Part shown: piece by piece, positions 3,906 through 12,365 of the stretch
How the letters are laid out: each line of letters starts with the position of its first letter
How positions within the stretch are numbered: the first letter of the stretch is position 1
From: Rahnella victoriana
Lineage (GTDB): Bacteria; Pseudomonadota; Gammaproteobacteria; Enterobacterales; Enterobacteriaceae
Direction of reading: 5' to 3'
Assembly (NCBI RefSeq): GCF_004330295.1
Contig: NZ_SJOJ01000017.1
Span: forward strand, 7,284-31,283
DNA: 24,000 bases
Program-made: the position numbers and the translations under genes
The notes under the pieces: model-generated
Database searches by the model: none
Seen by the model: the letters and a program-made list of their open reading frames with translations, nothing else
What the model was told of the DNA's origin: nothing

Positions 3906-4667
3906 ATGTTTGCAAGCCAGGAAGGGAAAAACGTACCGCAAGTCACTTTCCATACCCGTCAGGGCGACCAGTGGGTAGATCTCTCCAGCGATCAGCTGTT
4001 TAAAAATAAAACAGTGATTGTTTTTTCACTGCCGGGCGCGTTCACCCCGACCTGTTCATCGAGCCACCTGCCACGTTACAACGAACTGGCACCGGTGTTC
4101 AAAAGTCACGGCGTGGACAGCATTCTGTGCGTTTCCGTCAACGACACCTTTGTGATGAACGCGTGGAAAGCGGAACAGAACGCCTCCAACATTACCTTCA
4201 TTCCGGACGGTAACGGCGAGTTCACCAAAGGCATGGATATGCTGGTGGAAAAAGCCGATTTAGGCTTCGGTCCGCGCTCATGGCGTTATTCCATGCTGGT
4301 GCGCAACGGCGTGGTGGAAAAGATGTTCGTTGAGCCAAACAAACCGGGCGACCCGTTTGAAGTGTCTGACGCCGACACCATGCTGAAATATCTGGCACCT
4401 GAATTTAAAGTGCAGGAATCGGTTTCCGTGTTCACCAAACCGGGCTGTCCGTTCTGTGCGAAAGCCAAACAAATGTTGCAGGAACGCGGCATTCAGTACG
4501 AAGAAATTGTATTAGGTAAAGATGCGACCACCGTCTCTCTGCGCGCCGTAACGGGCCGGGCGACAGTACCACAAGTCTTTATCGGCGGACGCCACATCGG
4601 GGGAAGTGACGATCTGGAAGTGTACCTGCACTCAGAAACGCAGGACGTGTGCGAAGTGGCACAGTAA
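3906..4667 (+). CDS. Hybrid peroxiredoxin (Prx5-type) - glutaredoxin, a glutathione-dependent peroxidase
   Basis: The N-terminal domain carries the Prx5-type peroxidatic motif [10 protein letters not shown]. The C-terminal domain carries the Grx active site CPFC plus [18 protein letters not shown]. The architecture resembles Haemophilus PGdx and Vibrio PrxA. RBS AAGAGG is at 3894-3899. Confidence 0.9.
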
Positions 4668-4668
4668 C

Positions 4669-4780
4669 GTCGATAAGACTCTGCTGTAAGAAGTAAGACA
4701 AGAAGTCCCTGCATTATCGACAAAAAGAAGCAAAGTAAGACTACGTGAACTTTCGGCGGACTTCGGGTCCGCCTTTTTTT
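4669..4780 (+). ncRNA. Candidate OxyS-like sRNA / structured 3' UTR of prx-grx
   Basis: Three parts. A 5' stem-loop: 4669-4676 pairs with 4714-4721, and 4677-4680 with 4704-4707. An A-rich ARN-type linker at 4721-4741. Then ACGTGAACTTT (4743-4753) followed by a terminator hairpin. The 3' third resembles the E. coli oxyS 3' end as I remember it (AACGTGAACTTTTGCGGATC...GATCCGC-Tn). Overall length is about 112 nt against 109 nt. No own promoter is evident. Confidence 0.5.
4755..4780 (+). terminator. Rho-independent terminator of prx-grx (and 3' end of the OxyS-like element)
   Basis: GGCGGAC (4755-4761), loop TTCGG, GTCCGCC (4767-4773), followed by T7 (4774-4780). Confidence 0.9.
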
Positions 4781-4853: not shown

Positions 4854-5891
4854 ATGGCGAATGGCGGAACGATGACGGCGCAAAAACCCCGCAACAAAAT
4901 TACGCAACAGGATGTCGCCCGTCTGGCGGGGGTGTCCGTTTCGGCGGTATCACTGGTGCTCGGCGGCAAAGGCCGTATTTCCCCGCAAGGGGTAGCGCGA
5001 ATTTATCAGGCCATCGAACAACTGGGATATCAGTTACCTGCCACCGCCGTCCCCGCCTCTTTGCCCCGCATTGGCCTGTTACTGCCGCATGACTGCGATT
5101 TTTCCGCCGCGTTACTGCCGGCGCTGGCGAAAACCCTGCAACAGGCCGGTTTTACCCTCGCACTTTCTTATGTTGATTTGCACCCTTCGCGGTTACTGGC
5201 TCAGGCCGGAACGCTTCTGACACAGGACATCTGCGGCATGCTGGTGTGCGGGAGGCTGCTCAACGATCACCCCGATGTGTTGCAGGCGCTGAGTTCACGC
5301 GCTGACGCCCGTCACATCGCCCTGACCGGGATCAGCGCCCATCATCATCCGGGTCCGGTTGCCGCCGTCCATCCGGACAATGCGCTGGCGGCACATCAGG
5401 CAACGGACGCCCTGCTTAAGCAACAGCATAAACATATCGCGTATCTCGGCGGCGAAAACCATTCGCTGGTACGCGCCGAAAGACTGGGCGGGCTTTCCGT
5501 GGCGCTGGGTAAAGCGGGCGTGGCCTTTTCACCGTCGCTCAGCCTGCCCTGCGCCGCCACCTTTGCGGATGCCTCCCGCGCCGCCGAACAGTTACTTAAA
5601 CAGCACCCCAAAATCTCGGCAATCCTGTGCGATAACCCGACGGTTTTGCAGGCGGCGCATCACACGCTGCTTAGCGGAACACAGGCACACCGCTGGCGGC
5701 TGTTTTCACGGCGCATCGCCCTGACCGGTTTCGGCGAATGTGAGTCATCCCTGAAACTGCAATTGCCGGTGATTGCCGCCCGTCACCGCACGCTGGCCCG
5801 TCGGGTGCTGGAATGCCTGCAACATCAGCTGGACGGCAACACATTATTGCCCGGCGATCCCCGCCTGACGGTGCCTGCCGTCTTCCTTTAA
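4854..5891 (+). CDS. LacI/GalR-family transcriptional regulator
   Basis: N-terminal HTH ITQQDVARLAGVSVSAVSLVLGGKGRISPQGVARIYQAIEQLGY is followed by a periplasmic-binding-protein-like sugar-binding fold of about 330 aa. The start is ambiguous: ATG 4854 or ATG 4872 (MTAQKPRNK...), and neither has a strong SD. Confidence 0.85.
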   Translation: MANGGTMTAQKPRNKITQQDVARLAGVSVSAVSLVLGGKGRISPQGVARIYQAIEQLGYQLPATAVPASLPRIGLLLPHDCDFSAALLPALAKTLQQAGFTLALSYVDLHPSRLLAQAGTLLTQDICGMLVCGRLLNDHPDVLQALSSRADARHIALTGISAHHHPGPVAAVHPDNALAAHQATDALLKQQHKHIAYLGGENHSLVRAERLGGLSVALGKAGVAFSPSLSLPCAATFADASRAAEQLLKQHPKISAILCDNPTVLQAAHHTLLSGTQAHRWRLFSRRIALTGFGECESSLKLQLPVIAARHRTLARRVLECLQHQLDGNTLLPGDPRLTVPAVFL

Positions 5892-6025
5892 CCTGTCCGG
5901 CAGGCAGGTAAAAAAAATCGGCGAAAAATTTTACCCGTTTTATTTATCATTCCTGACCCGCGCCTTTTGACGCTTTTTCCACCACCGCTGATGCTGTATC
6001 CAGGTTTTTCACAGGGTCAGGGTCA

Positions 6026-7414
6026 ATGATCGACTTCTCAGCACACGCCCGGGATCGGGCCACGCAGTTCCTCACATTACTCGCGCAATGGGTGGCTATC
6101 CCTTCGCCTTTCGACGCGGACAGCCGGCAGCCCGACGCCCCCTTTGGCCGCGGCATTGCCGATGCGCTGCACTGGTGGCAGACCCTGGGCGACAACGCCG
6201 GGCTCGCGACCCTGAATGTCGATCACCATGCCGTGCATATCGAATACGGCAGCGGCGACGAGATCGTGTATGTCTTTGGTCACGCCGATGTCGTGCCTGC
6301 CGGTGACGGCTGGCATTTCCCGCCCTATCAGCTGTCCCGTCTGGGCGACAAACTGATTGGTCGCGGCGTCATGGATGACAAAGGCCCGATGATCGCCGCC
6401 TGGCTGGCGCTGGATATTCTGCGCGAGCTGAAACTGCCGCTGGCGCGCCGGATCCGACTGGTGGCGGGCGGCAACGAAGAAACCGGCTTCCGCTGTATCC
6501 GCCGGTATTTTGAATCGCAGCCGCAACCGGCATTTGCCTTCACGCCGGACGGAAAATTTCCGGTGATCTACGGTGAAAAAGGCTCGCTGCTGGTCAGGCT
6601 GACGTCGCCGGTTGCACAGACCGGGCTGAACGTGGCCTGCGGCAACGTCGTGAACACCATTCCTGATGTCGCGCATCTGCGTGGCCTTTCACTTTACTCC
6701 GGCGGATGGACACTGGCGGACGGTTTTACGCTGCTGGCGGAACCGGCCTGCGCCGATCACTGGCAGTTGTATGGCCGTGGCGGCCATTCATCTAAACCGG
6801 AACAATGCCTGAATCCCATCACCGCCACGGCGCAGTTACTGCATCAGCGATTCAGCAGTCACTGGACGCAGCAACTTTGCGACATCACCGACGCGACAAC
6901 CGGCCAGAACGGCGTGCGTTTTGCCTTGGATACCCCGGGCGAATGCGGTCAGATCCTGCTGGTGCCGACGGTACTGAACATCGGTAACGGGCAGATGACA
7001 CTGACGCTCAACGTGCGCTATCCCGAGAATCTCAGCACAGAAGAGATTACCGCCAGCCTGACACGCTGGCTTCGCGGCTGGCCCGCAAGCCGTATTGATA
7101 TTGAGCCGGTCAAACCGCCGGGCTTTTATCCGCCAGACAGTGCGCTGGTGCAGACGCTGCATGAGATTTACACCCGCCACACCGGCGATCACCACCATCC
7201 TTCCCGCACCACCGGCGCAGGCAGTTACGCCAGCGCGATGCAAAACGCCGTGATCTTCGGCTGTGAGTTTCCTGACGGCTCTTCCGGCAATACGCATGGT
7301 GCGGACGAATACGGCAGTTTGTGCCGCTTTATCAGCGCGACCGGCATGTACGCCGAAGCGCTTTACCGGCTGGCAAACCTGCCCGCCGCCACCCCAGAAA
7401 AACGAGGTATCTGA
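6026..7414 (+). CDS. M20A-family metallodipeptidase (PepV/Sapep-like)
   Basis: The full set of di-zinc M20 motifs appears in order: GHADVVP (His), GVMDDKGP (bridging Asp), GGNEETG (catalytic and metal Glu), TPDGKFPVIYGEKG (Asp), GGHSSKPE lid motif, and NTHGADE (His). 462 aa, typical of PepV-type dipeptidases. Confidence 0.85.
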   Translation: MIDFSAHARDRATQFLTLLAQWVAIPSPFDADSRQPDAPFGRGIADALHWWQTLGDNAGLATLNVDHHAVHIEYGSGDEIVYVFGHADVVPAGDGWHFPPYQLSRLGDKLIGRGVMDDKGPMIAAWLALDILRELKLPLARRIRLVAGGNEETGFRCIRRYFESQPQPAFAFTPDGKFPVIYGEKGSLLVRLTSPVAQTGLNVACGNVVNTIPDVAHLRGLSLYSGGWTLADGFTLLAEPACADHWQLYGRGGHSSKPEQCLNPITATAQLLHQRFSSHWTQQLCDITDATTGQNGVRFALDTPGECGQILLVPTVLNIGNGQMTLTLNVRYPENLSTEEITASLTRWLRGWPASRIDIEPVKPPGFYPPDSALVQTLHEIYTRHTGDHHHPSRTTGAGSYASAMQNAVIFGCEFPDGSSGNTHGADEYGSLCRFISATGMYAEALYRLANLPAATPEKRGI

Positions 7415-7416
7415 AA

Positions 7417-7737
7417 ATGTCTGCAAAAAAACTGATTGCGCTGTGCGCCTGCCCGATGGGACTGGCTCATACCTTTATGGCTGCCGAAGCCATTGAAGTG
7501 GCCGCCCGTGAACGCGGTTATGAGGTGAAAGTTGAAACACAGGGTGCCGACGGCATCCAGAACGAACTGACAGCGGAAGACATCGCGCAGGCCACGGTGA
7601 TCATCCACGCCACCGGTATCACGCCGCAAAACATCGAGCGGTTTAATGGCGTTGAAGTGTATGAAGTCGAGCTGAAAGACGCCGTAAAAAACGCGGGCGG
7701 ACTGATCGACGAAATCGAAGAAGATCAGCGCCAGTAA
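7417..7737 (+). CDS. PTS fructose-family EIIB component (FrwB/FryB-like)
   Basis: MSAKKLIALCACPMGLAHTFMAAEAIE...KVETQGADGIQNELTAEDIAQA matches the Fru-type IIB signature (phospho-Cys in C-P-x-G-[IL]-A-H-T-[FY]-M-A-A-E). RBS GAGGT is at 7404-7408. The ATG lies 2 nt after the M20 stop. The track ORF (from 7321) is an in-frame upstream extension that overlaps the M20 gene. Confidence 0.9.
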   Translation: MSAKKLIALCACPMGLAHTFMAAEAIEVAARERGYEVKVETQGADGIQNELTAEDIAQATVIIHATGITPQNIERFNGVEVYEVELKDAVKNAGGLIDEIEEDQRQ

Positions 7738-7773
7738 TTCCACATTTGCTTTTTTAAGCGCAAGGAGTTCCCC

Positions 7774-9006
7774 GTGACGATAAGAAAAAGAGTCATCAAC
7801 ACCGGTCACAGTCAGGCCACAGAGACACCGGCGGCACCCGCAGGCAAAGGCCAGAGCCATGCCTGGAAAGAGTTCAGCAAACACATCATGACCGGCATTT
7901 CCTACATGATCCCGGTGCTGATTATGGGCGGTCTGATCGGCGCACTGTCGCAAATCATTCCTTATGTTTTTCTGGGTATGTCGCCGGATGAGTCGATCAT
8001 GGCGGCGCTTAACAGTGGTCGTTTCAGCGGCAGTTCGGTGTGGATGCTGCAAATCGCCAGCATCATGGAAAGCTTTGGTTTCACGCTGTTTGGCTTTGCG
8101 ATACCGATGTTCGCGGCGTTTACCGCCAACTCTATCGGCGGGAAAACGGCACTGGCGGCGGGCTTTATCGGCGGCTATGTGGCGATCAAACCGGTGGCTG
8201 TTCCGGCGCTGGTCGGCGGAGAATGGGCTGCCGTCGCGCCGGTCGCTTCCGGCTTCCTTGGTGCGATCGTGATTGCGTTTGTGGTCGGCTATTTCGTTCG
8301 CTGGCTGAATAACACCATCAAACTGCCGCACAACTGGCTGGCCTTCAAAACCACATTCTTCATCCCGCTGATTTCCGCCATTATGGCGATGTTGCTGATG
8401 GTATTCCTGATCACGCCGGTCGGTGGCTGGCTGAACACGCTGATCAAAGAAGCCTTGCAGGCCGCCGGCGCGGCAGGCACCTACTTCTACGCCACCTTAC
8501 TGGCGGCGGCGACGGCGTTTGACCTGGGCGGTCCGGTCAACAAAGCGGCAGGGTTTGTGGCGCTGGGCTTCACCACCGAAAAAGTGCTGCCGATCACCGC
8601 GCGCTGTCTGGCCATCGTGATCCCGTCGTTTGGCCTGGGGCTGTCAACGGTCATCGATAAATGGCTGGTTGGCCGCCGTGTTTACGACCGCCAGTTCAAT
8701 CAGATTGGCCGCACCGCGATTTTCCTCGGCTTTATGGGCATTTCCGAAGGGTCGATTCCGTTTGCACTGGAACGTCCGGGGTTTGTCATTCCGGTGTACG
8801 TCATCGGTGCCATTATCGGCGCGCTGCTTGGGGTTTCGCTTGGTGCGGTGCAATGGTTCCCGGAATCCGCTATCTGGGCATGGCCGCTGATCAGCAACAT
8901 TCCGGCTTACCTGACCGGTCTGATCGCAGGTTCGCTGTTTATCGCCGTCACCTGCGTGTTCTACCGTAACCGCCTGATCAAAAAAGGCTTACTCGAGATC
9001 GCCTGA
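7774..9006 (+). CDS. PTS fructose-family EIIC permease (FrwC/FryC-like)
   Basis: 410-aa polytopic membrane protein with Gly/Ala-rich helices, including ...FDLGGPVNKAAGF... and ...GISEGSIPFA..., typical of Fru-family IIC. GTG start at 7774 with AAGGAG (7762-7767) 6 nt upstream. The hydrophilic N-terminal 37 aa contain an Ala/Pro linker-like tract (ETPAAPAGKG). Confidence 0.88.
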   Translation: MTIRKRVINTGHSQATETPAAPAGKGQSHAWKEFSKHIMTGISYMIPVLIMGGLIGALSQIIPYVFLGMSPDESIMAALNSGRFSGSSVWMLQIASIMESFGFTLFGFAIPMFAAFTANSIGGKTALAAGFIGGYVAIKPVAVPALVGGEWAAVAPVASGFLGAIVIAFVVGYFVRWLNNTIKLPHNWLAFKTTFFIPLISAIMAMLLMVFLITPVGGWLNTLIKEALQAAGAAGTYFYATLLAAATAFDLGGPVNKAAGFVALGFTTEKVLPITARCLAIVIPSFGLGLSTVIDKWLVGRRVYDRQFNQIGRTAIFLGFMGISEGSIPFALERPGFVIPVYVIGAIIGALLGVSLGAVQWFPESAIWAWPLISNIPAYLTGLIAGSLFIAVTCVFYRNRLIKKGLLEIA

Positions 9007-9020
9007 GTCCGGAGGACACC

Positions 9021-10088
9021 ATGAGTCGTCAGCAACGTCTGACTGCCCTGCGCCAGCAGATGGCAGAGCAGCATATTCCCGCCGTGCTTCTGACCGACAG
9101 GTTCAGCAAATATGCGGTGGCGGATCTGTACAGCGCCTCCGGCTACGTGCTGGTCACAGCAACCGGCCTGTGGATACTGGTCGATGGCCGTTACAGCGCC
9201 GAATGCCAGCAGAACAATCCGGGCGTTGACGTGCTGACCCTCACGGCGCAGCAGACGCTGGCGGACTGTCTCACCCGATATCTGCCCGGCGACCGGCTAT
9301 ATGCCGATGCCAGCGTGTTATCGCATCTGGCATGGCAGGCGCTGGAAAAACAGTGCAAGGTGCCGCTGCAACACCGGGATGCGTCGGCTTTGCGGATACA
9401 TAAATATCCTGATGAAATCGTGAAAATCCGTCAGGCCGCCGCGATAGCCGACCATGCCTTAAAGACGGTGATGCCGCTGATCCAACCGGGCATCAGCGAA
9501 AAAACACTGGCCGACCATCTCGAAATGGCGGTCCGGCAGGCCGGTGGCAGCAAAACGGCCTTCGATACCGTCGTGGTGTCAGGCCCGCGCGGGGCGTTAC
9601 CACACGGGCGTCCGACAGAGAAAAAGCTGATGGCCGGAGAGCTGGTGACGATTGATTTCGGCGCGGTATATCAGCATTACTGTTCCGACATGACGCGGAC
9701 TTTCGCGCTGGGCGAGGTCAGCCCGGCACTGAAAGCGATGTATGACACGGTGTTTATCGCGCAGCAGGCCGCACGCGAGGCGGTCAGGCCGGGGATCCGT
9801 TGTCAGGAACTGGATGCCGTGGCGCGGGATAGCATTTCTGCGGCGGGGTATGGCGACTATTTCAGCCACAATCTCGGGCACGGTCTGGGATTAGATGTTC
9901 ATGAAGCGCCCGCCCTCAGTCCGCAAAATGCGCAACCGCTGGAACCGGGAATGATCATCACGATTGAGCCGGGGATTTATATTCCGGGACTCGGTGGTGT
10001 GAGAATTGAGGATGACGTACGGGTGACCGAAACGGGAGGTGAACTGCTGACGCAGAGTCCACGCCGTTGGGAAGAAATCGTTGTGTAG
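9021..10088 (+). CDS. M24B-family Xaa-Pro amino/dipeptidase (YpdF/PepQ-like)
   Basis: Pita-bread fold metal ligands appear in order: TIDFGAVY (Asp), CSDMTRTF (Asp), HNLGHGLGLDVHE (His), ITIEPGIY (Glu), GGVRIEDDV (Glu). 355 aa. RBS GGAGG is at 9011-9015, 14 nt after the IIC stop. Confidence 0.88.
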   Translation: MSRQQRLTALRQQMAEQHIPAVLLTDRFSKYAVADLYSASGYVLVTATGLWILVDGRYSAECQQNNPGVDVLTLTAQQTLADCLTRYLPGDRLYADASVLSHLAWQALEKQCKVPLQHRDASALRIHKYPDEIVKIRQAAAIADHALKTVMPLIQPGISEKTLADHLEMAVRQAGGSKTAFDTVVVSGPRGALPHGRPTEKKLMAGELVTIDFGAVYQHYCSDMTRTFALGEVSPALKAMYDTVFIAQQAAREAVRPGIRCQELDAVARDSISAAGYGDYFSHNLGHGLGLDVHEAPALSPQNAQPLEPGMIITIEPGIYIPGLGGVRIEDDVRVTETGGELLTQSPRRWEEIVV

Positions 10089-10094
10089 CCGGGC

Positions 10095-10118
10095 TTCTCC
10101 CCCTTCGCAGGGGGAGAA
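10095..10118. repeat. REP-like palindromic unit acting as a bidirectional hairpin between the convergent M24 peptidase gene and argH
   Basis: TTCTCCCCC-ttcgca-GGGGGAGAA, a 9-bp stem. The 20-nt core CTCCCCCTTCGCAGGGGGAG recurs exactly, in inverted orientation, at 18908-18927. Confidence 0.7.
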
Positions 10119-10128
10119 ATTCCAGGAA

Positions 10129-11505
10129 TTACAGCCCTAAACGCGCTTTCGCATCGGCAATTGCCTGTGCGACCTGTTGCGGCGAAACGCCGCCTTTGGC
10201 TGCGCGTTTGTCGAGACAGGATTGCAGCTCAAGGATCGGATACACATCGTCGCCAATCACGCTGCTGAATTTCTGCAAATCGGTCAGCGGCAAGGCTTCC
10301 AGCGCTTTGCCCTGCTTAATCGCCTCCACCACCGCTTCACCGACAATATGGTGCGCTTCGCGGAACGGTACGCCTTTGGCGACCAGATAATCCGCCAGTT
10401 CAGTAGAGTTCGCGTAGCCCTGTTGCGCCGCTTCTTTCGCACGCGGACGTTTCACCTGAATGCCGTCCAGCACCAGAGACGCCATGTTCAGGCAATCCAT
10501 CCAGGTATCGAGCGCGTCGAACAACCCTTCTTTGTCTTCCTGCATGTCTTTGTTGTACGCCAGCGGCAGACCCTTCATGGTCATCATCATGCCGGTCAGG
10601 GCACCCTGCACACGGCCACATTTGCCACGGATCAGCTCCAGCGCATCCGGGTTTTTCTTCTGCGGCATCAGGGAAGACCCTGACGTCACGCGATCGGACA
10701 AATCGATAAACGCCGCTTCGCCGGTATTGAAGAAGATCAGGTCTTCGGCAAAACGGGAAAGGTGAACCATGCTGATCGCCGCGTTGGACAGCAGTTCAAG
10801 AACATGGTCGCGGTCAGACACGCTGTCGAGGCTGTTGCGGGTCGCGGAAGCGAAACCTAACCAGCCTGCCAGCTGTTCGCGATCCATCGGATACGCGGTA
10901 CCGGCCAGCGCGCCACATCCCAGCGGGCTGACGTCCAGACGGGTCAGGGTATCTTTCAGGCGGCTTTCATCACGCGCCAGCATTTCGACATACGCCATGC
11001 ACCAGTGCGCAAACGTCACCGGCTGCGCGCGTTGCAGGTGGGTGTAACCCGGCATCACCGCGTCCTGATTGGCTTCGGCAGTGGCGACCAGCGCCTGCTG
11101 TAAATGATGCAGCGCGTCGCCCAGTTCCACGACCTGCGCTTTGCACCACAGTTTAATGTCAGTCGCGACCTGATCGTTACGGCTGCGGCCGGTATGCAGT
11201 TTCTTACCGAGATTGCCGACTTTGTCGATCAGTTTGCCTTCAACCCAGCTGTGAATATCTTCTGCATCGCTGGCTAAAATAGCGCGCGGGTTGGCACGGA
11301 CTTCTTCCAGCAGAACGGTCAGCGCCTCTTCCAGCTGAATTTGCTCGTCAGCCGTTAAAACGTTGACGGTCACCAGCGCTTTGGACCAGGCCACGGAACC
11401 GACGATGTCCTGCTCTGCCAGCCGGTAATCGAAACGCAATGAGTCATTCAGTTCTTTAAACCGCTGATCCGCTGCCTGAGTAAAACGTCCGCCCCAAAGT
11501 GCCAT
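10129..11505 (-). CDS. argH: Argininosuccinate lyase
   Basis: [45 protein letters not shown] and the [12 protein letters not shown] signature are collinear with E. coli ArgH (457 aa). Confidence 0.97.
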
Positions 11506-11591
11506 TTTCCTGCTCCTGAAATTTTTTATGCAAAAGGGCGCACTCTGCTGCGCCCTGACAAAAGTGTGTACCGGATACGCCGGACGATGCG

Positions 11592-12365
11592 TTACGCCAA
11601 AATGCGTGTGCCGATCGCGACGCCGTTAAACAATGCCGGCAATTGCTCGGCGTGACGCCAGCTGGCGATATCGACCGGACGTCCGAGAGAACGTGCGGCA
11701 TCCAGCGCAGCGTGAACTTTGACGATCATGCCGTCAGTGATAATCCCCTGATCGATAAGCTGCTCGGCTTTCTCCGCACTCATCTCAGGAATGCGCTGGC
11801 CTTTGCCATCGAGAATACCGCTCACATCAGACAGCAGGATCAGATCCGCGCCCAGCGTGGCGGCCAGCGCCGTCGCCGCCTGATCGGCATTGACGTTCAT
11901 CAGTTCACCGGCAGCGGTGATACCGATAGAACTGACAATCGGCAGGTAGCCTGCACCGTGCAGCGTGTTGATCAGCGCCGGATTACCGGCTTCGGCTTTA
12001 CCGACATAGCCCAGTGATTCATCCAGTTGCGTCACGCTGACCGTGCCGCCGTCCGCCAGAGACAGCCCCACCGCATTGATATGATTTTTAACCGCCCAGG
12101 CCAGCAGGGTTTTGTTGGCACTGCCCGCGAGCGCGCCGGTAATGATGTCAATCTGATCCGCCGGAGTCACACGCAGACCGGCTTTTTTCACCACCGGCAG
12201 ATTCAGCTTTTTCATCAGCTCATCAACCAGGCAGCCGCCACCGTGAACAATGACCAGCGGGCGGTGATATTCCTGACGATAAGCCACGACCGCCATGAAC
12301 AGGCGCTCAAGTGCTTCTTCATTGTCCAGCAACACACCACCTAACTTGATGACTAACGGATTCAT
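11592..12365 (-). CDS. argB: Acetylglutamate kinase
   Basis: [21 protein letters not shown]...VIVHGGG...[36 protein letters not shown] matches E. coli ArgB. 257 aa. Confidence 0.97.

Follow-up and report, generated by a model that had tools for sequence, protein, structure and literature searches.

Escherichia coli K-12 has operons that place genes of a phosphotransferase system (PTS) beside peptidase genes: fry, frv and sgc. The fry operon, fryB-fryC-ypdF-ypdE-fryA (b2387-b2383), encodes enzymes IIB and IIC, the peptidases YpdF (family M24) and YpdE (family M42), and FryA, a fusion of EI, HPr and IIA; frv and sgc encode the peptidases FrvX and SgcX. To our knowledge, none of the three has found an explanation since the genome was sequenced, nor has a physiological substrate been assigned to malXY, which includes the PTS permease MalX. 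The fry, frv and sgc genes are still annotated as 'putative'. A literature search found no paper that assigns a substrate to any of the three, or that characterises the cluster described here or the physiology of Fry and YpdEF; PMC5270733 and PMC3510511 had no bearing on PTS-peptidase clusters.

Here we describe a related locus in a 24 kb stretch of enterobacterial chromosome from Rahnella (the window, by which we mean the whole stretch analysed). An exact-sequence look-up of the M20 gene matched no contig, but its protein shares 99% identity with one from Rahnella victoriana. An initial annotation of the window had noted an M20 peptidase, an orphan fructose-family IIB and IIC and an M24 peptidase behind a LacI-family regulator. 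It had likened this cassette to fry, frv and sgc, which exist as it described them, and had suggested a conjugate of a sugar with a peptide or an amino acid as the substrate. Comparative data strengthen that suggestion. The M20 enzyme comes from a clade found solely adjoining this PTS, across two phyla, and close relatives of the transporter are coupled either to peptidases and a lyase or to an alpha-mannosidase. We tentatively propose that the cassette serves the catabolism of amino-acid or short-peptide conjugates that carry a hexosyl, most likely alpha-mannosyl, group on a side chain.

Gene content and comparison with fry

The cassette has five genes, whose families were judged against curated Pfam and NCBIfam cut-offs:

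4854..5891, + strand: LacI-family, MalI-like regulator (Pfam LacI, Peripla_BP_1)
6026..7414, + strand: M20A dipeptidase, PepV/Sapep type (Pfam Peptidase_M20, TIGR01887)
7417..7737, + strand: PTS enzyme IIB, fructose family (Pfam PTS_IIB, TIGR00829)
7774..9006, + strand: PTS enzyme IIC, Fry subfamily of the fructose family, GTG start (Pfam PTS_EIIC)
9021..10088, + strand: M24B aminopeptidase, YpdF-like, Xaa-Pro type (Pfam Peptidase_M24, Creatinase_N)

Gene positions and spacings, read directly from the sequence, agree with the initial annotation. The LacI stop codon is followed after 134 nt by the M20 ATG, the M20 TGA after 2 nt by the IIB ATG, the IIB TAA after 36 nt by the IIC GTG and the IIC TGA after 14 nt by the M24 ATG. 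Translational coupling had been claimed for the whole unit; it can be kept for the 2-nt M20/IIB junction only and falls away for the other junctions. Shine-Dalgarno-like motifs precede IIB (GAGG), IIC (AAGGAG) and M24 (GGAGG), and a weak one (AGGG) precedes M20. As first noted, the cassette has no sugar-catabolic enzyme: none of its open reading frames (ORFs) encodes a kinase, isomerase, aldolase, deglycase or glycosidase.

By homology and gene order, the locus is a member of the Fry subfamily. Direct BLAST against E. coli K-12 proteins gave identities of 71% for IIB (FryB), 52% for IIC (FryC) and 43% for M24 (YpdF), and these genes stand in the same IIB-IIC-M24 order in both species. Both operons also encode a second metallo-exopeptidase and no sugar enzyme. 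The locus is nevertheless, as the initial annotation held, a distinct variant of fry. Its second peptidase is an M20A enzyme of PepV/Sapep type in place of M42 YpdE; FryA is lacking, and with it IIA, EI and HPr; and the window has a LacI/MalI-type regulator, an M20 gene at the head of the operon and a different chromosomal site. A tblastn search with YpdE and FryA found no match in the Enterobacterales loci. The NCBIfam models PRK10474 and PRK10478 were considered as models of FryB and FryC and rejected. Since FryC itself scores 138 against a cut-off of 426 on PRK10478, these models describe another paralogue.

The M20 protein scores 305.7 bits on TIGR01887 (Sapep family dipeptidase; cut-off 207.95) and passes Pfam Peptidase_M20. 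It lies below both PepV equivalog cut-offs (320 versus 435 and 231 versus 632) and is therefore no orthologue of the housekeeping enzyme PepV. Its score on the model of the Cys-Gly-3M3SH dipeptidase is 183 bits. The nearest solved structures are Sapep (3khx/3ki9) and PepV (1lfw). Residues H86, D88, D118, E151, E152, D175, H424 and R331 are present and invariant across the clade, so that the ligands for two metals, the catalytic Glu and the lid-domain Arg for the substrate carboxylate are all in place. The carboxylate-binding R331 aligns with the Arg-to-Ala site of the S. aureus Sapep variant in entry 3khz.

Linkage of this gene was surveyed in 80 species-representative loci holding M20 relatives. 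Relatives with at least 39% identity are all flanked by IIB-IIC-M24 where the contig reaches (L010 ends inside the regulator gene). They come from Enterobacterales, Pelosinus, Lucifera, Acetonema, Selenomonadales, Romboutsia and Clostridium. Of about 70 ordinary PepV genes, with at most 35% identity to the M20 protein, not one lies beside IIB-IIC-M24.

The IIB protein scores 103.3 on TIGR00829 (fructose-family IIB; cut-off 76.85) and 71.6 on Pfam PF02302 (cut-off 23.6). Its phospho-cysteine, Cys12, lies in CACPMGLAHT (residues 10-19), a match to the CPxGxAHT motif. In direct BLAST comparison it is 69-76% identical to IIBs of the Firmicutes clusters described below. The IIC protein passes Pfam PTS_EIIC (66.2 versus 30.7) and scores 148.0 on TIGR01427, below the cut-off of 157.55. 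E. coli FryC also falls below, at 157.0, so that the window IIC is as much a member of the Fru family as FryC is; the two share 52% identity. It is further 72% identical to the IIC of Acetonema, 67% to an S. suis IIC linked to a GH38 gene and 28% to FrvB. On the model of E. coli MngA it scores 116 bits; MngA is no close relative.

IIB and IIC do not make up a complete PTS permease, as the cognate IIA (PTS_EIIA_2), present in all Firmicutes versions, is not co-encoded. There is no IIA homologue in the window, and no gene for IIA, PatB or mannose-6-phosphate isomerase (PMI) within 10 kb in any of eight Enterobacterales loci. The transporter is thus an orphan in the sense of the initial annotation, with no IIA partner within reach.

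The M24 protein scores 248.9 bits on Pfam Peptidase_M24, 30.3 bits on Creatinase_N and 317.7 on the YpdF equivalog model, the last below its cut-off of 393. Its best PDB match is E. coli YpdF (5cnx), and all five metal ligands (D212, D223, H287, E316 and E330) are present. Specificity for Xaa-Pro bonds is putative. The catalytic and metal-binding residues of both peptidases and the phospho-cysteine of IIB had been called intact, and each was found in place.

Relatives in Firmicutes and partner modules of the transporter

Outside Yersiniaceae, the nearest homologues of the M20 protein (39-49% identity) are in Negativicutes and Clostridia. Examples are Acetonema longum, Pelosinus, Lucifera butyrica, a Selenomonadales genome, Romboutsia sedimentorum, Clostridium sp. 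CCUG 7971 and C. omnivorum. Where the layout can be checked, it runs M20, PRD/Mga/EIIA regulator, IIA, IIB, IIC, M24, PatB-family lyase; a class I PMI is often found downstream of the cluster or divergent upstream. These clusters hold the closest relatives of all four structural genes in the same core order. IIB (67-76% identity) and IIC (66-74%) are unusually conserved across phyla, and the peptidases (39-49% for M20, 38-45% for M24) are not. Compared with the Firmicutes clusters, the window lacks the PRD/EIIA activator, IIA, PatB lyase and PMI and has acquired a LacI-type repressor. Extra genes near the Firmicutes clusters (ddl, a sigma-54 activator, a thiolase, and a PfkB kinase beside an ABC system) are not conserved and gave no further clue.

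The 'aminotransferase' of these clusters is a beta-lyase of the PatB family that depends on pyridoxal phosphate (PLP). All five proteins tested, from four architectures, pass TIGR04350 (345-354 bits against 340), and the best solved relatives of the cluster lyases are C-S lyases: PatB, MalY-like and cystalysin. A Firmicutes cluster lyase is 28% identical to MalY. A MalY/PatB-family lyase thus accompanies members of two PTS families, in malXY and in the Fry-subfamily clusters of Firmicutes.

We counted the partner modules of the transporter in 65 loci whose sequence extends 3.5 kb or more past IIC, drawn from a metagenome search with an IIC alignment and from loci fetched earlier. In 39 of them the order is PRD regulator-IIA-IIB-IIC-GH38 alpha-mannosidase, and none of the 39 has a peptidase or lyase. 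The other 26 are peptidase-linked. Twenty-two of these are of the Firmicutes type and every one has a PatB lyase, combined as M20+M24+PatB in nine, as M24+M42+PatB in 11 and in other layouts in two. A PMI (class I, above the TIGR00218 cut-off) is present in 5 of the 22. The four peptidase-linked loci with no lyase are the LacI-type loci of Enterobacterales. GH38 was found together with a peptidase or lyase in 0 of 65 loci; it is absent from all 26 peptidase-linked loci and from the window. In a neighbour-joining tree of IIC, the GH38 and peptidase module types are interleaved and the Enterobacterales clade is nested in the M20+M24+PatB group.

The GH38-linked IICs are 65-67% identical to the window IIC. 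The S. suis GH38 protein has a single NCBIfam match, to the mannosylglycerate hydrolase (MngB) model, at 771 bits. MngB is described as freeing mannose-6-phosphate from the 6-phospho-alpha-mannoside that the fructose-family PTS MngA makes (PMC2815779). In MngA/MngB of E. coli and the streptococcal PTS-GH38 operons (2-O-alpha-mannosyl-D-glycerate and related alpha-mannosides), a mannoside phosphorylated by a fructose-family PTS is the substrate from which a cytoplasmic enzyme releases mannose-6-phosphate. The logic proposed below is the same, with the difference that the window has no GH38 gene and peptidases occupy its place.

Gut and fermentation metagenomes (L152, L155, L160, L165 and L167-L173) hold a further layout: PRD regulator-IIA-IIB-IIC-M24(YpdF-like)-M42(YpdE-like)-PatB lyase, sometimes followed by PMI. 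These loci are the Firmicutes-type counterpart of fry; the E. coli operon has both peptidases and no lyase. Two proteins of 495 residues, P0284 and P0347, combine M24 domains with an M42 domain and may be YpdF-YpdE fusions or gene-calling artefacts.

Conservation, selection and age

The same five-gene order is found at the same site, between a peroxiredoxin-glutaredoxin gene and argH, in seven other Enterobacterales loci, whose sources are metagenomes and a genome that bears the label Enterobacterales bacterium AwEntero. Protein matches also name several Rahnella species and Rouxiella. Since this order recurs in seven loci and the M20/IIB/IIC/M24 core also occurs in Negativicutes and Clostridia, the linkage of the genes is not due to chance.

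All five genes are under purifying selection. Ratios of nonsynonymous to synonymous divergence (dN/dS) are 0.04-0.21, over dS of 0.55-3.5: 0.04-0.07 for IIB and IIC (0.05-0.07 for IIC) and 0.10-0.21 for M20, M24 and the regulator. The peptidases are less constrained than core genes, and the constraint on IIB and IIC equals that on the adjacent peroxiredoxin. Being intact, co-conserved and under purifying selection, the cassette looks functional, as it had on first inspection.

The cassette is old and vertically inherited, since its dS in the closest locus, L095 (0.55-0.77; regulator 1.3), is about what the housekeeping genes on either side show (0.44-0.80). The peptidases and the regulator exceed the flanks in dS in L096 and L008, but these values are near saturation. 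Across the comparisons with L095, L096 and L008, identities are 91-99% for flanking proteins, 54-95% for cassette proteins and only 54-84% for the regulator, M20 and M24. The peptidases and the regulator thus change far more rapidly than the transporter does. The dN of these three genes is 5-25 times that of flanking housekeeping genes, with similar dS in L095. A swap of divergent alleles into a conserved site was considered and rejected for L095, where dS is alike for cassette and flanks and only dN differs. Composition makes a weak case for a recent horizontal origin: G+C content is 0.591 in the island and 0.542 in the rest, and values at third codon positions overlap.

Regulator and promoter region

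The regulator is above the cut-off of both Pfam LacI and Peripla_BP_1. Its top NCBIfam match is the MalI subfamily model, at 182 bits and below the cut-off of 310. It shares 33% identity with E. coli MalI; the helix-turn-helix is nearly the same in both, and the recognition helix is conserved. The start codon is ambiguous (ATG 4854 or ATG 4872), with a clear Shine-Dalgarno motif at neither; the homologue in L007 has 336 aa, against 345 aa in the window.

Between the regulator and M20 lie:

5907..5935, no strand: inverted repeat GGTAAAA-N15-TTTTACC, with arms like MalI operator half-sites that are kept across six Enterobacterales loci
5929..5948, + strand: invariant 20-nt promoter block TTTTACCCGTTTTATTTATC / TTTTACCYGTTTTATTTATC, a candidate binding site of the regulator
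5967..5995, + strand: putative promoter, with -35 TTGACG, 17-nt spacer and -10 GATGCT, both hexamers conserved in six loci

The 20-nt block does not differ among the eight Enterobacterales loci (Y at position 8), despite near-saturated synonymous sites. It is unique within the window, and 0 of 100 shuffles match it. The block holds two MalI-type half-sites, with a third, inverted, 15 nt upstream at 5907-5913, and sits just upstream of the conserved -35/-10 pair. In L095 and L007 the left arm of the inverted repeat is altered at one or two positions; its spacer is variable among the six loci. For comparison, the MalI operators of E. coli are GATAAAACGTTTTACC and GATAAAACGTTTTATC. The promoter at 5967-5995 is proposed from conservation; its -10 is weak, and a simple sigma-70 scan called no promoter there.

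Because the helix-turn-helix is MalI-like and the invariant block carries MalI-type half-sites, control of the cassette by the MalI-like repressor is likely, judging from these sequence features. The initial claim of LacI regulation is plausible to this extent, short of a canonical palindrome.

The malI-malX-malY system of E. coli resembles the window in its MalI-like repressor, its similar promoter half-sites and its orphan PTS permease with no IIA of its own. The two differ in that MalX belongs to the glucose family and malXY has no peptidases, whereas the window has neither a MalY gene nor the canonical 16-bp operator. The malI-malX spacer of E. coli (L175, 2211-2240), GATAAAACGTTTTACCTTTTATTTATC, resembles window positions 5925-5948, AAAATTTTACCCGTTTTATTTATC, beyond the MalI half-site.

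Proposed function and alternatives

Our preferred reading, offered tentatively, is that of a repressor-controlled catabolic cassette of the Fry subfamily for side-chain hexosyl, most likely alpha-mannosyl, conjugates of amino acids or short peptides. We infer the substrate, the step order, the trans-acting helpers and the repressor operator. The MalI-like repressor would hold the M20-IIB-IIC-M24 operon off until an inducer arrives. IIC would import the conjugate, with the sugar on the side chain, and IIB would phosphorylate the sugar at C6 through Cys12, with a IIA encoded at another site of the genome as its phosphate donor. The YpdF-like M24 enzyme would then, in the cytoplasm, strip N-terminal residues, Xaa-Pro bonds included, and the PepV-like M20 enzyme would take off the last C-terminal residue to leave a phosphoglycosyl amino acid. 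In the Firmicutes versions, the PatB-family lyase would then release sugar phosphate, pyruvate and ammonia by beta-elimination, and PMI would pass the sugar phosphate to glycolysis. The Rahnella cassette would have lost IIA, lyase and isomerase and would borrow a FruB/PtsN-type IIA, a MetC/MalY-type lyase and ManA.

This proposal draws mainly on the partner modules. GH38 and peptidase plus lyase are alternative partners of one conserved transporter, and PMI occurs with both; most simply, each module would release one and the same sugar phosphate, though from a different aglycone. Mannosyl conjugates are suggested because the recurring partners are a PatB lyase and PMI and because close relatives of the transporter are paired with GH38. 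A side-chain link is favoured because the aminopeptidase and the PepV-type dipeptidase need a free alpha-amine and a free carboxylate. Staphylococcus hominis offers a precedent, in which a PepV dipeptidase and then a PatB lyase process the side-chain conjugate Cys-Gly-3M3SH (PMC11742315, PMC7385124). As in the proposed route, an M20A enzyme removes the C-terminal residue of a side-chain-conjugated dipeptide and PatB acts by beta-elimination. The S. hominis thioalcohol pathway (DtpT, PepV, PatB) differs in its unlinked genes, its proton-coupled peptide uptake and its hydrophobic thioether substrate; here the genes are clustered with a PTS, and the lyase is absent in Rahnella.

A narrower version of the proposal, which we regard as rather doubtful, is that Fry-subfamily PTS-peptidase clusters salvage O-mannosylated peptides (alpha-Man-O-Ser/Thr di- or tripeptides) and that PatB removes the sugar with no glycosidase. 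Such peptides are compatible with every part, and would come from Ser/Thr/Pro-rich fungal or actinobacterial mannoproteins, a source that would explain the Xaa-Pro peptidase. The PTS would take them up and phosphorylate the mannose at C6. The Xaa-Pro aminopeptidase and a dipeptidase (M20 or M42) would strip the flanking residues, and PatB would yield mannose-6-phosphate, pyruvate and ammonia by beta-elimination from the serine side chain. Rahnella would have a stripped-down version that uses housekeeping MetC/MalY, ManA and a shared IIA.

Several points weigh against a mannosyl-conjugate cassette. Its substrate is predicted from sequence comparison for every member, E. coli Fry included. The last steps are hypothetical in Rahnella, whose cassette has no IIA, lyase, glycosidase or isomerase. 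The case for mannose comes from paralogous transporters (65-67% identity) and from a PMI found in a minority of loci. Many of the metagenomic loci behind the 39 and 26 counted above are near-duplicates, so the counts describe a pattern and not independent events, and the neighbour-joining tree of IIC has no support values. The canonical 16-bp MalI palindrome is absent from the window with up to 3 mismatches allowed. PatB enzymes are known as C-S, not C-O, lyases.

In a rival reading, PatB would be a true C-S lyase here and the substrate a cysteinyl peptide substituted on sulfur, whether as an S-glycoside or as a mercapturate-type Cys-Gly conjugate. The cluster lyases do pass the PatB C-S lyase model and have C-S lyases as their best solved relatives, the M20 protein scores 183 bits on the Cys-Gly-3M3SH dipeptidase model, and PepV and PatB of S. 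hominis act on a Cys-Gly S-conjugate. Yet S-glycosyl cysteine is naturally rare, and its beta-elimination would yield a 1-thio-sugar phosphate that PMI cannot use. A non-sugar S-conjugate would leave the PTS unexplained, as a PTS phosphorylates a hydroxyl group, and the GH38 paralogues point to O-glycosidic mannosides; a thioether substrate is therefore, in our judgement, improbable. The initial annotation had named Amadori-type fructosyl peptides as an example, which the comparative data do not support. Here the PTS would import fructosyl or glucosyl peptides (Amadori or Heyns products) and the peptidases would release a glycated amino acid. A cassette with no sugar enzyme leaves the substrate open, and PTS uptake of fructoselysine and glucoselysine is known from Salmonella GfrABCD (PMC5270733). 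Gfr, however, is a mannose-family and not a fructose-family PTS, and the known pathways need a deglycase (FrlB/GfrE/GfrF type) or a kinase. Neither a SIS-domain deglycase of this type nor a fructosamine kinase is present in the window, and none was seen around seven clusters annotated with Pfam, a search that was not systematic and did not query all 26. The partners that recur are instead a PatB lyase and PMI. An N-terminal adduct would also block the free alpha-amine that aminopeptidases and PepV-type dipeptidases require, and we hold glycated peptides to be a very remote prospect.

The peptidases might instead have no part in handling the transported molecule. The PTS would then take up free mannose or fructose, and housekeeping peptidases would merely share its promoter. 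Enzymes of the PepV and YpdF types are indeed of broad specificity in vitro, fructose-family IICs include free-hexose transporters, and the window IIC scores just short of the TIGR01427 threshold (148 bits, cut-off 157.55). This explanation sits poorly with the linkage data, in which the M20 clade occurs only beside this PTS, in two phyla, and ordinary PepV genes never do. Peptidase plus lyase and GH38 are also mutually exclusive on the same transporter, which implies that what is transported is the substrate of both modules; neither would be needed for a free hexose, and we judge a plain-sugar PTS to be quite unlikely. A crippled or re-purposed remnant has less in its favour still: with no IIA, lyase or isomerase there would be no transport, and the cassette would be decaying or would keep IIB/IIC as a sensor only. 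The absence of IIA, PatB and PMI within 10 kb in the eight Enterobacterales loci speaks for such a remnant, as does the 5- to 25-fold dN of M20, M24 and regulator over flanking housekeeping genes. All ORFs are intact, however, with active-site residues in place. Their dN/dS of 0.04-0.21 over dS of 0.55-3.5 indicates a maintained function, and IIB and IIC are constrained like the neighbouring peroxiredoxin. It is also established that an orphan IIBC can borrow a general IIA: E. coli MalX uses Crr. We give the remnant little credence.

Flanking genes and boundaries

The window reads fabR-like, sthA, oxyR, peroxiredoxin-glutaredoxin hybrid, cassette (5 genes), argH, argB, argC, argE, ppc, metF, metL, metB, metJ. 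The cassette is bounded by two hairpins:

4755..4773, + strand: strong intrinsic terminator that ends the upstream peroxiredoxin-glutaredoxin gene and bounds the cassette on the left (GC stem GGCGGAC/GTCCGCC, then a T-run)
10095..10118, no strand: 9-bp GC hairpin between the convergent M24 and argH genes, the right boundary (-22 kcal/mol, z = -2.66)

The right hairpin has no T-run and is a presumed terminator. The peroxiredoxin-glutaredoxin hybrid (Redoxin and Glutaredoxin domains, 3906-4667) adjoins oxyR and flanks the cassette on the left in all Enterobacterales loci examined. On the right, argB directly follows argH in the window (10129-12365) and in L095; a 1.3-kb gene intervenes in L006, L096 and L098, and in L006 this gene is argininosuccinate synthase (argG). 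Long antisense ORFs overlap the cassette genes (e.g. 6077-6676 and 7363-8331, - strand). Lacking family support, they are what G+C-rich coding sequence commonly produces as a by-product.

Significance

The locus adds an M20 enzyme in place of M42, LacI-type control and a minimal gene set to the known PTS-peptidase operons. Such operons are no peculiarity of E. coli: this cassette is under selection and vertically inherited, and it has relatives in another phylum. The exchange of GH38 for peptidases and PatB on one transporter backbone makes the old question of fry testable with defined compounds. If mannosyl peptides are indeed the substrate, a nutrient class would be added to PTS biology, together with a new, glycosidase-free enzymatic route for removing an O-linked sugar. 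Functions would also follow for several orphan genes of E. coli, fryBC-ypdEF and perhaps, by analogy, malXY.

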